A stretch of DNA of 64,000 bases from Naegleria gruberi (taxonomy: Eukaryota): the NCBI GenBank assembly GCA_000004985.1, contig GG738904.1, one strand, 5' to 3'. The position numbers were made by a program, and so were the translations under genes. Positions 58,972-59,532 of the stretch are shown here, piece after piece. Every line of letters begins with the position of its first letter. The stretch's first letter is position 1. The notes below the pieces were generated by a model. It made no database searches. It saw only the letters and a list, made by a program, of their open reading frames with translations, and had not been told where the DNA came from.

Positions 58972-59532
58972 ATGACTCAAACTTCTTCATCAACAGCAGA
59001 AACATCTACAGAAACCTCGGAAGTTCCAAACAACACATCAACCAAAACACCATCAACAACACCATCAAAAACACTATCAAAAACATCAACCAAAACACCA
59101 TCAAAAACATCAACCAAAACACCATCAAAAACACCAAGAAAAACACCAAGAAAAACACCAAAAAAAACACCAGCAAAGAAATCTGCAAAAAAACCATTCA
59201 CAGGAGGAATTAAAAAGCCACACAGATATAGACCAGGTACTGTAGCTTTAAGAGAAATCCGAAAGTATCAAAAAAGCACTGAATTATTGATAAAAAAAAA
59301 ACCTTTTTGTAGGTTGGTGAGAGAAGTTGCTCAAGATTACAAATCTGATGTTAGATTTCAAGCGAATTCACTCCTTGCACTTCAAGAAGCAGCTGAGGCA
59401 TTTATTATTGATATTTTTGAGGATACTAATCTTTGTGCCATTCACTCCAAAAGAGTTACTATTTTGCTCAAAGATATGCAACTTGCATTAAGAGTAAAAG
59501 GTGTTAATTATATTGGTTTATTAAATAAATAA
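58972..59532 (+). CDS. Divergent histone H3 variant with a T/S/K/P-repeat N-terminal tail
   Basis: Histone fold: [95 protein letters not shown]. The canonical ARTKQTARKS tail is replaced by [31 protein letters not shown]. Confidence 0.85.

Follow-up and report, generated by a model that had tools for sequence, protein, structure and literature searches.

A probable lineage-specific, non-centromeric variant of histone H3 with an SPKK-type repeat tail in Naegleria gruberi

What kind of histone is encoded at positions 58972..59532 (+ strand) of a 64,000-nucleotide stretch of the Naegleria gruberi genome (assembly GCA_000004985.1, contig GG738904.1), hereafter the window? The locus contains a complete coding sequence for a protein of 186 amino acids, with a molecular mass of 20.7 kDa and an isoelectric point (pI) of 10.3, which is identical to an annotated N. 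gruberi protein, "histone H3", from a 297-kb scaffold (GenBank XP_002671547.1 / EFC38803.1, UniProt D2VWB2). The open reading frame (ORF) begins at the first start codon past an in-frame stop and represents a genuine gene, annotated before but undescribed. The canonical N-terminal tail ARTKQTARKSTGGKAPRK, with K4, K9, S10 and K14, is absent from the product, which accordingly is a variant and not canonical H3. The evidence set out below argues strongly that it is a lineage-specific H3 with an SPKK-type repeat tail, distinct from the bulk H3 of this organism and very probably not a centromeric histone H3 (CenH3).

The variant is the sole H3-like gene of the window and has no H4 partner; neither a histone 3' stem-loop nor any other Rfam family was found at the gene in an Rfam scan. 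The lack of H4 pairing and of the stem-loop are features of the replacement type. The signal AATAAA overlaps the final codons of the gene. The variant is probably a low-abundance or stage-specific replacement H3.

The N-terminal tail opens with an acidic, Ser/Thr-rich stretch (residues 1-22; 58972..59037, + strand) with a net charge of -3 and without ARTKQTARKS. The stretch passes into an A/C-rich coding minisatellite (59035..59177, + strand), consisting of 11.9 copies of the 12-nt unit ACACCAnCAAAA with 81% matches; its DNA is nearly devoid of G and T. The tandem array did not come about by chance but is a true repeat, produced by slippage, and encodes (T-[PSL]-x-K)n. The motif TPxK begins at residues 30, 42, 50, 54, 58, 62 and 66, so that the tail contains eight TP and seven TPxK motifs, the seven TPxK spanning 41 residues. 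Residues 23-84 have a net charge of +19 and a pI of 12. Going by the (S/T)PxK motif alone, the tail may be phosphorylated by cyclin-dependent kinases (CDK).

The repeat is followed by a Naegleria-type K27/S28-T32 segment (residues 68-78; 59173..59205, + strand), collinear with ARKSAKQPSTG of Naegleria H3. The K27 segment of N. gruberi H3, AARKSAKQPSTGGLKKPHRY, is longer by 2 amino acids, which is a lineage-specific trait (bioRxiv 10.1101/2021.11.30.470311 supplement), and the K27 region of the variant is collinear with it. Upstream of this segment, KTPRK of the variant aligns with KAPRK (K14-K18), and the TPxK repeat may, as this alignment suggests, be an outgrowth of this KTPRK/KAPRK motif. 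T3, K4, K9 and S10, together with the surrounding ARTKQTARKS, are truly gone from the variant, and neither ARTKQT nor KQTARK was found in the six-frame translation of the whole 64-kb window. The original prediction, made from the sequence of the window, had the entire canonical tail, the K4, K9 and K27 contexts included, replaced by about 80 amino acids of repeats. Its account is accurate for the K4 and K9 contexts but not for K27: the variant retains the K27 context, together with K36, K56 and K79. Likewise, the repeats themselves were confirmed, with seven TPxK motifs, but are confined to residues ~23-69, residues 1-22 being acidic and Ser/Thr-rich. No secondary structure was predicted over residues 1-89 in a single-sequence AlphaFold model of low confidence (predicted local distance difference test, pLDDT, 50.3). 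An AlphaFold input alignment built from double-H3 proteins was dropped, since it placed the variant tail on a histone fold.

The K36/K37 motif, the alphaN helix and the histone fold (residues 79-177; 59206..59502, + strand) are free of gaps relative to H3. In a PDB search, residues ~79-177 matched solved H3/H3.3 chains with a gap-free fold (E=1.1e-53), and the Pfam family Histone (PF00125) was assigned with E=4.2e-37, alongside a sub-threshold match to CENP-T_C. Counted from GTVALREI onward, the fold is 77% identical (68/88) to that of N. gruberi H3; the corresponding figure for human H3.2 is 62/88. The 20 fold substitutions relative to Naegleria H3 are mostly conservative, namely R63K, Y99F, L100I, V101I, L103I, I130V and R131K. 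Residues K36/K37, R40-R42, R49, K56, F84, R69, R72, K79 and R83 are kept, as are T107, C110, H113, R116, T118, K122, L126 and R129. Judged from the alignment, most canonical residues of DNA contact and of the H3-H3' four-helix bundle are thus preserved, the exceptions being R63K and Leu at position 128.

Three features of the sequence had been singled out in advance. In helix alpha1, PFCRLVRE had been noted in place of PFQRLVRE; the TGT codon at 59308..59310 (+ strand) does encode Cys113, which corresponds to Gln68 of H3 (Q68C), and the change is flanked by R63K and L65K. Loop 1 had been described as not lengthened, with equivalents of F84 and T107 retained, which agrees with the alignment to H3: loop 1 of the variant, DYKSDVRF, is collinear with DFKTDLRF of H3 and contains no insertion. 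The predicted extension of the C-terminus is also present, as the hydrophobic sequence VNYIGLLNK and the stop codon (59503..59532, + strand) stand in place of ERT/ERA, the corresponding C-terminus of Naegleria H3 being RIRG-ERT. The H3-like fold as such is borne out by the PDB and Pfam matches.

Is the variant then one copy of the bulk H3 among many? The bulk H3 of N. gruberi is a canonical protein of 138 amino acids for which GenBank has at least three accessions, on three contigs (EFC36852, EFC42318 and EFC49702), and proteins at least 90% identical to it are present in records of N. lovaniensis and Willaertia. In the available part of the published N. gruberi table of post-translational modifications (PTM), it is the form bearing K4me1/2 by mass spectrometry. 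The variant, in turn, forms a cluster of one at 90% identity in the protein collection. Membership in a set of near-identical bulk H3 copies, named beforehand as an outcome that would overturn the prediction, therefore does not apply, the bulk H3 being a distinct protein.

The variant and Naegleria H3 share the 2-amino-acid insertion after K27 (AxKSAKxPxTGG) and the motifs DYKSD and KDMQLA; these common traits place the origin of the variant in the H3 lineage of Naegleria. The fold region was also compared by neighbour joining among six H3-like proteins of N. gruberi and H3/cenH3 pairs of other eukaryotes. In the resulting tree, the variant is sister to EFC36852 and EFC37152 and apart from 11 cenH3s, with a bootstrap of 40% and poor support for the whole H3 clade. 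EFC37152 (140 amino acids, 'H3.3 putative') resembles the variant in its K27 segment, which is of the AKKSAKQP type, in a changed K9 context and in the C-terminal residues LNK; in contrast to the variant, its fold is almost identical to that of bulk H3, the tail has the normal length, with ARTKQT and without repeats, and Q68 is intact.

Extended or repetitive N-tails were also observed in other N. gruberi histones. The cenH3-class protein EFC47663 (bioRxiv 10.1101/2021.11.30.470311 supplement) has an N-tail starting with two KAP[RK]KSI units, and H2A.X and H2A.Z (EFC47077/EFC47670) carry long N-tail extensions of the TTKTSTKKDKK type. From these sequences, the expansion of histone tails seems to be a habit of the N. 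gruberi genome.

What could such a tail do? The variant would pair with H4 and become part of ordinary nucleosomes. At the entry/exit site of the DNA, where the tail of H3 passes out between the two gyres, the +19 tail with its seven SPKK-type motifs would bind to linker DNA or to the minor groove. Repeated (S/T)-P-x-(K/R) units in basic disordered histone tails bind DNA and promote compaction, and the motifs of sperm histones are regulated by phosphorylation. By analogy with the SPKK tails of sperm H1/H2B or of plant H2A.W, a bound tail would neutralise charge and thereby promote compaction, and the binding to DNA would be loosened once the tail threonines are phosphorylated by proline-directed kinases of the CDK or mitogen-activated protein kinase (MAPK) type. 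Nucleosomes containing the variant would be without the methyl-acetyl code of K4/K9 and the mitotic marks at S10/T3: because T3, K4, K9 and S10 are absent, such nucleosomes would be unable to carry them. The K27/S28-like site, K36, K56 and K79 could still be marked. This scheme of compaction with a phospho-switch, drawn by analogy, is tentative. For identity and mechanism taken jointly, that is, a lineage-specific, single-copy, non-centromeric H3 of the replacement type whose SPKK-type tail is phospho-switchable, the chances appear to be about even.

Functionally, the nearest parallels are the SPKK tails of sperm H1/H2B and of plant H2A.W. Repeated (S/T)-P-x-(K/R) units are present, as in the variant, in the tails of sea-urchin sperm H1/H2B, of Hydractinia sperm H2B variants and of plant H2A.W. 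In those SPKK systems, the motifs are located on H1, H2B or the C-terminus of H2A, whereas in the variant they are located on H3, with Thr as the acceptor and with interleaved TSTK/TLSK units, and their binding to DNA is predicted. Linker histone H1 shares with the variant a disordered region rich in Lys, Pro, Ser and Thr with CDK-type (S/T)PxK sites. It differs in its winged-helix globular domain (PF00538), Pfam finding only PF00125 in the variant; accordingly, the designation of the tail as H1-like in the original prediction fits with respect to motif and composition but does not extend to the H1 globular domain. In addition, H1 tails are far richer in Lys than the tail of the variant with its 19%.

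Among H3 proteins, the nearest parallels come from a ciliate. H3.7 and H3.8 ('protein X') of Stylonychia lemnae are 20-kDa, non-centromeric H3 variants with altered N-termini; H3.8 occurs in the micronucleus only, and H3.7 only in the developing macronuclear anlagen (PMC3918171). Like the N. gruberi variant, both are ~180 amino acids long, have longer, altered N-termini, are distinct from CENP-A and occur alongside 15-kDa H3s; H3.8 also shares extra C-terminal residues and a K27/S28-like site, which is methylated and phosphorylated in H3.8 (PMC3918171). Unlike the N. gruberi variant, they are ciliate-specific, of independent origin and without a visible TPxK array, and their expression and localisation have been demonstrated (PMC3918171). 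In the literature on SPKK-type tails, on the Naegleria linker histone and on cyst transcriptomes, neither a direct precedent for an SPKK-type tail on H3 nor expression data for the variant were found.

Lineage-specific H3 variants are common in protists, and another one is unsurprising. The interest of this one lies in the position of an SPKK-type, potentially phospho-switchable repeat on H3, at the site of DNA entry and exit where linker histones act, and in the combination of dropped K4/K9/S10 signalling sites with retained K27, K36, K56 and K79. If expressed, the variant would show, as an experiment of nature, which forms an H3 tail may take, and could mark a specialised chromatin state of Naegleria (cyst, flagellate or mitotic); Naegleria is now being developed for work on mitosis and the kinetochore.

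Several other explanations of the locus have to be weighed, of which a centromeric role is raised by the alpha1 substitution itself. Published criteria for CenH3 comprise an insertion in loop 1, a divergent tail, the absence of the alpha1 Gln and a divergent fold (PMC7052976). The variant has a divergent tail and is without the Gln; the other two of the four features are absent, as loop 1 contains no insertion and the fold, 77% identical to that of H3, retains F84 and T107. Loop-1 insertions were found in 10 of the 11 cenH3s of the tree alignment. A centromere- or kinetochore-related H3, either a CenH3 paralog of atypical form or a partner at the pericentromere that binds CENP-C-like factors via its hydrophobic C-terminus, would account for the divergent N-tail and the loss of Gln68, Cys68 being found in the cenH3 of Micromonas too. 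The extension VNYIGLLNK is similar to the extensions of the compared cenH3s, and the start of alpha2 is identical to that of Nannochloropsis cenH3 over 14 residues. A long loop 1 is reportedly not obligatory, as in the Dictyostelium CenH3 described by Dubin in 2010, which also speaks for a centromeric role. Set against these points are the intact fold and loop 1, the grouping of the variant with H3 and not with cenH3 in the tree (bootstrap 40%), and the presence in the genome of CenH3 proteins proper. According to the part of the bioRxiv 10.1101/2021.11.30.470311 supplement that covers them, the cenH3 class of N. gruberi includes EFC49963 (XP_002682707.1), EFC47663 and EFC48882. An antibody to CENP-A1 (EFC49963) revealed ~159 nuclear foci which colocalised with CENP-C and followed spindle microtubules, and two CENP-A paralogs were down-regulated or undetected in mitosis (bioRxiv 10.64898/2026.08.18.745565); judging from the count, the latter two would be EFC47663 and EFC48882. 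The search for a separate bona fide CenH3, suggested together with the original prediction, was thus positive. CENP-A1 is, like the variant, derived from H3, with a long, divergent, Ser/Thr-rich N-tail, no Gln68 and a C-terminal extension, but it has a 2-amino-acid insertion in loop 1, Trp at position 84 and a punctate localisation with CENP-C. The two proteins are just 42% identical overall, and the variant is without the fold hallmarks of cenH3. With a validated CENP-A1 and two more cenH3-class paralogs already in the genome, a centromeric role of the variant is quite improbable. As a singleton with an H3-like fold, it is, as originally proposed, neither bulk H3 nor a textbook CenH3, and it shows that the loss of Gln68 and a divergent tail are insufficient for calling a CenH3.

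The tail could also be an artefact of annotation, the repeat being spliced out or translation starting elsewhere, so that the mature protein would have no TPxK tail. A hypothetical in-frame intron of 156 nt, from GT at 59023 to AG at 59177-59178, would indeed remove all repeats. However, the first 250 nt contain no other GT, and GTTCCA, in which this one lies, makes a poor 5' splice site compared with the GTAAGT-like consensus. After the start codon, no further Met is encoded ahead of the fold, a canonical tail exon was not found anywhere in the 64-kb window, and the spliced product would still be without K4 and K9. Moreover, the repeat is in frame and free of stops over 143 nt, and the GenBank model is the unspliced ORF. 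An artefactual tail is therefore highly improbable, and the second outcome named beforehand as refuting, an N-terminal extension that is an unspliced intron or a product of misannotation, is not what the sequence indicates, given the lack of an internal Met, of a canonical tail exon and of plausible splice sites.

The age and use of the gene were assessed by comparison with canonical-H3 DNA. For the estimation of dN/dS, this DNA was taken from two ENA metagenome contigs, L001 (1176-1592) and L002 (102-518), which probably derive from Naegleria relatives in metagenomes. Both encode a protein identical to the bulk H3 of N. gruberi and differ from each other by 7% of nucleotides, nearly all of the differences being synonymous. 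Over 110 aligned codons, the proportion of synonymous differences between the variant and canonical H3 (pS) is 0.74, which is saturated, and the nonsynonymous divergence (dN) is 0.17. Saturated synonymous sites together with this dN point to an old duplication, with the fold under purifying selection for most of the time since. The ORF is intact through the slippage-prone repeat, the unit of which is a multiple of 3.

A number of observations nevertheless weigh against a replacement H3 with a chromatin role of its own. The fold has evolved ~12 times faster than that of bulk H3 (18.5 vs 1.5 substitutions per branch, with human H3 as the outgroup), which fits relaxed constraint as well as a new function. 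The GC content at third codon positions (GC3) of the variant is 0.16-0.18, the lowest among the 21 ORFs of the window, compared with 0.36-0.43 in canonical H3 genes; this low GC3, with low codon bias, points to low-level or stage-restricted expression (cyst, flagellate or other state). The tail consists of Thr/Ser to 47% and of Lys to just 19%, which makes it less basic than H1 tails, and the repeat could be a neutral product of slippage. A literature search by accession found the variant in no paper, it is not listed in those portions of the N. gruberi histone classification and PTM tables that were covered, and it is missing from the assembly-derived gene index. Finally, no orthologue of the variant was retrieved, although several of the searches were technically uninformative, so that absence is not shown by them. 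In the full-length homology search, the best 120 matches were mis-predicted tandem double-H3 proteins, which outscored any single-domain relative. The tail-only search returned two insignificant matches and did not recover the query's own database entry, and it is therefore silent on orthologues. In the search of representative sequences, in which the variant itself is no cluster representative, the long top alignments were all 5'-extended mispredictions of canonical H3 with an internal MARTKQTARK. Among the JGI metagenomes, variant-specific peptides matched only bacterial Pro/Thr-rich linkers and no H3 relative.

Together, these observations would suit a little-used or decaying paralog, i.e., an old duplicate under relaxed constraint, with very low expression, a tail of neutral slippage origin and no distinct role in chromatin. 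The window-lowest GC3 (0.16), the fast fold, the lack of a literature, proteomic or assembly-derived record in the portions of the sources covered, the lack of relatives among JGI metagenomes and the nature of the tail, a simple A/C-rich minisatellite, are all in line with such a history. A long-dead gene would look otherwise, however. Synonymous sites are saturated, yet dN is 0.17; no frameshift has arisen within the slippage-prone repeat, and the ORF is intact. The DNA-contact and bundle residues, R63K and Leu128 aside, are mostly kept, and the substitutions are mostly conservative. Decay of the gene is accordingly considered rather unlikely, and a lineage-specific H3 variant with an SPKK-type tail is preferred.

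The surroundings of this H3 variant were also analysed. Upstream, on the opposite strand, an ORF of 159 amino acids (58400..58879, - strand) lies 92 nt away in its short form; its long form, of 201 amino acids, extends to 59005 from an ATG that overlaps the variant start, and covers the first 34 nt of the variant. No Pfam domain was found in this ORF, neither of its forms is present in the protein collection, and no homologue was found in 5.8 billion clusters. Its status as a gene is unsupported, and it is certainly not H4. Thus, of the head-to-head pairing of the variant with a 159-amino-acid gene across 92 bp, as originally described, the ORF and its position are confirmed, and the gene status of this orphan is not.

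Downstream, ORF sequence starts 33 nt past the variant stop (59566..62545, + strand); positions 59750-60919 (1170 nt) are masked, and the frames on either side of the masked part differ; more than one ORF may be involved. For the visible 541 amino acids, no PDB match at E<=1 and no Pfam match were found, and the AlphaFold model, with a pLDDT of 29.7, is unusable. By eye, the order of the motifs SMDG...GEEKD...CPFC...ILHMD...AH...NQGVES, with the pattern D...D...CxxC...H...E, resembles that of the RAG1/Transib catalytic core. The original prediction placed the variant directly upstream of a RAG1-like gene; a long ORF is present there, and the RAG1-like label is a lead, neither confirmed nor refuted.

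The intergenic region upstream of the variant is filled by an 85-nt palindromic element (58890..58974, + strand), which ends in the ATG of the variant. A second copy (62545..62629, + strand) extends from the last base of the stop codon of the downstream ORF and likewise terminates in ATG, but is not followed by an ORF of more than 20 amino acids. The copies are 89% identical, the first ~46 nt being identical, and a 37-nt core occurs at these two sites only within the 64 kb. Both are imperfect palindromes, with arms of 20 nt, and share one hairpin fold (z -2.1 and -3.7). A tRNA or a short interspersed nuclear element (SINE) was ruled out, as no ARAGORN or Rfam match was obtained. The element may be of a type similar to miniature inverted-repeat transposable elements (MITE), a shared regulatory hairpin, the edges of a duplicated 3.66-kb module or a small dispersed palindromic repeat. 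AT-rich inverted repeats considered as transposon ends were rejected as likely due to chance. GC3 shows a trough at 58400-62545, with values of 0.20 for the orphan ORF, 0.16 for the H3 variant and 0.23 for the downstream ORF; the other 18 ORFs of the window have values of 0.24-0.39.

Could the variant and the putative RAG1/Transib-like ORF downstream be one 3.66-kb module, inserted or duplicated together? The two ORFs are on the same strand and 33 nt apart, the 85-nt element stands exactly before the variant ATG and exactly after the stop of the downstream ORF, GC3 is lower in the three local ORFs (0.16-0.23) than in any other ORF of the window, and fungal DNA transposons with genes of epigenetic enzymes are known (PMC12730594). 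However, the variant protein is single-copy at 90% identity and clearly derived from Naegleria's own H3. Terminal inverted repeats of a convincing kind are lacking, the pairs present being AT-rich and 74-78% complementary; the 85-nt element is itself a hairpin and could be a dispersed palindromic repeat unrelated to the genes, and the transposase identity of the downstream ORF is putative. A joint module is consequently very doubtful, and a unit of the DNA-transposon type carrying its own H3, with the SPKK-type tail marking or compacting the chromatin occupied by the unit, would be a highly speculative extension with little probability. A less far-reaching form of this idea would be an H3 that serves as its own CDK-switchable linker histone while the cell is dormant or in mitosis.

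The identity of the variant to the annotated N. gruberi protein marks the window as nuclear DNA of this species, and a giant-virus or dictyostelid origin was rejected on this ground. Apart from this locus, the window has a GC content of ~33% and contains compact genes, including those of a P450, an RGS protein, an F-box protein and a WS/DGAT. Runs of N occupy positions 985-6105, 7514-13723 and 59750-60919. A second A-rich minisatellite of the coding type is located at 57575-57721 (+ strand), with units of 27, 12 and 15 nt encoding K-N-T-V-K / K-T-N-T-K repeats. One of its frames is open but has no start codon, and the neighbouring ORF pieces (MSKGINK... upstream and 57730-58389 downstream) are in other frames, which points to a split gene, to introns or to frameshifts in the assembly. 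Next to the N run 7514-13723, the 2-kb bin 12001-14000 has a GC skew of -0.97 and an AT skew of +0.99, and the sequence there is probably another A/C-rich simple repeat.

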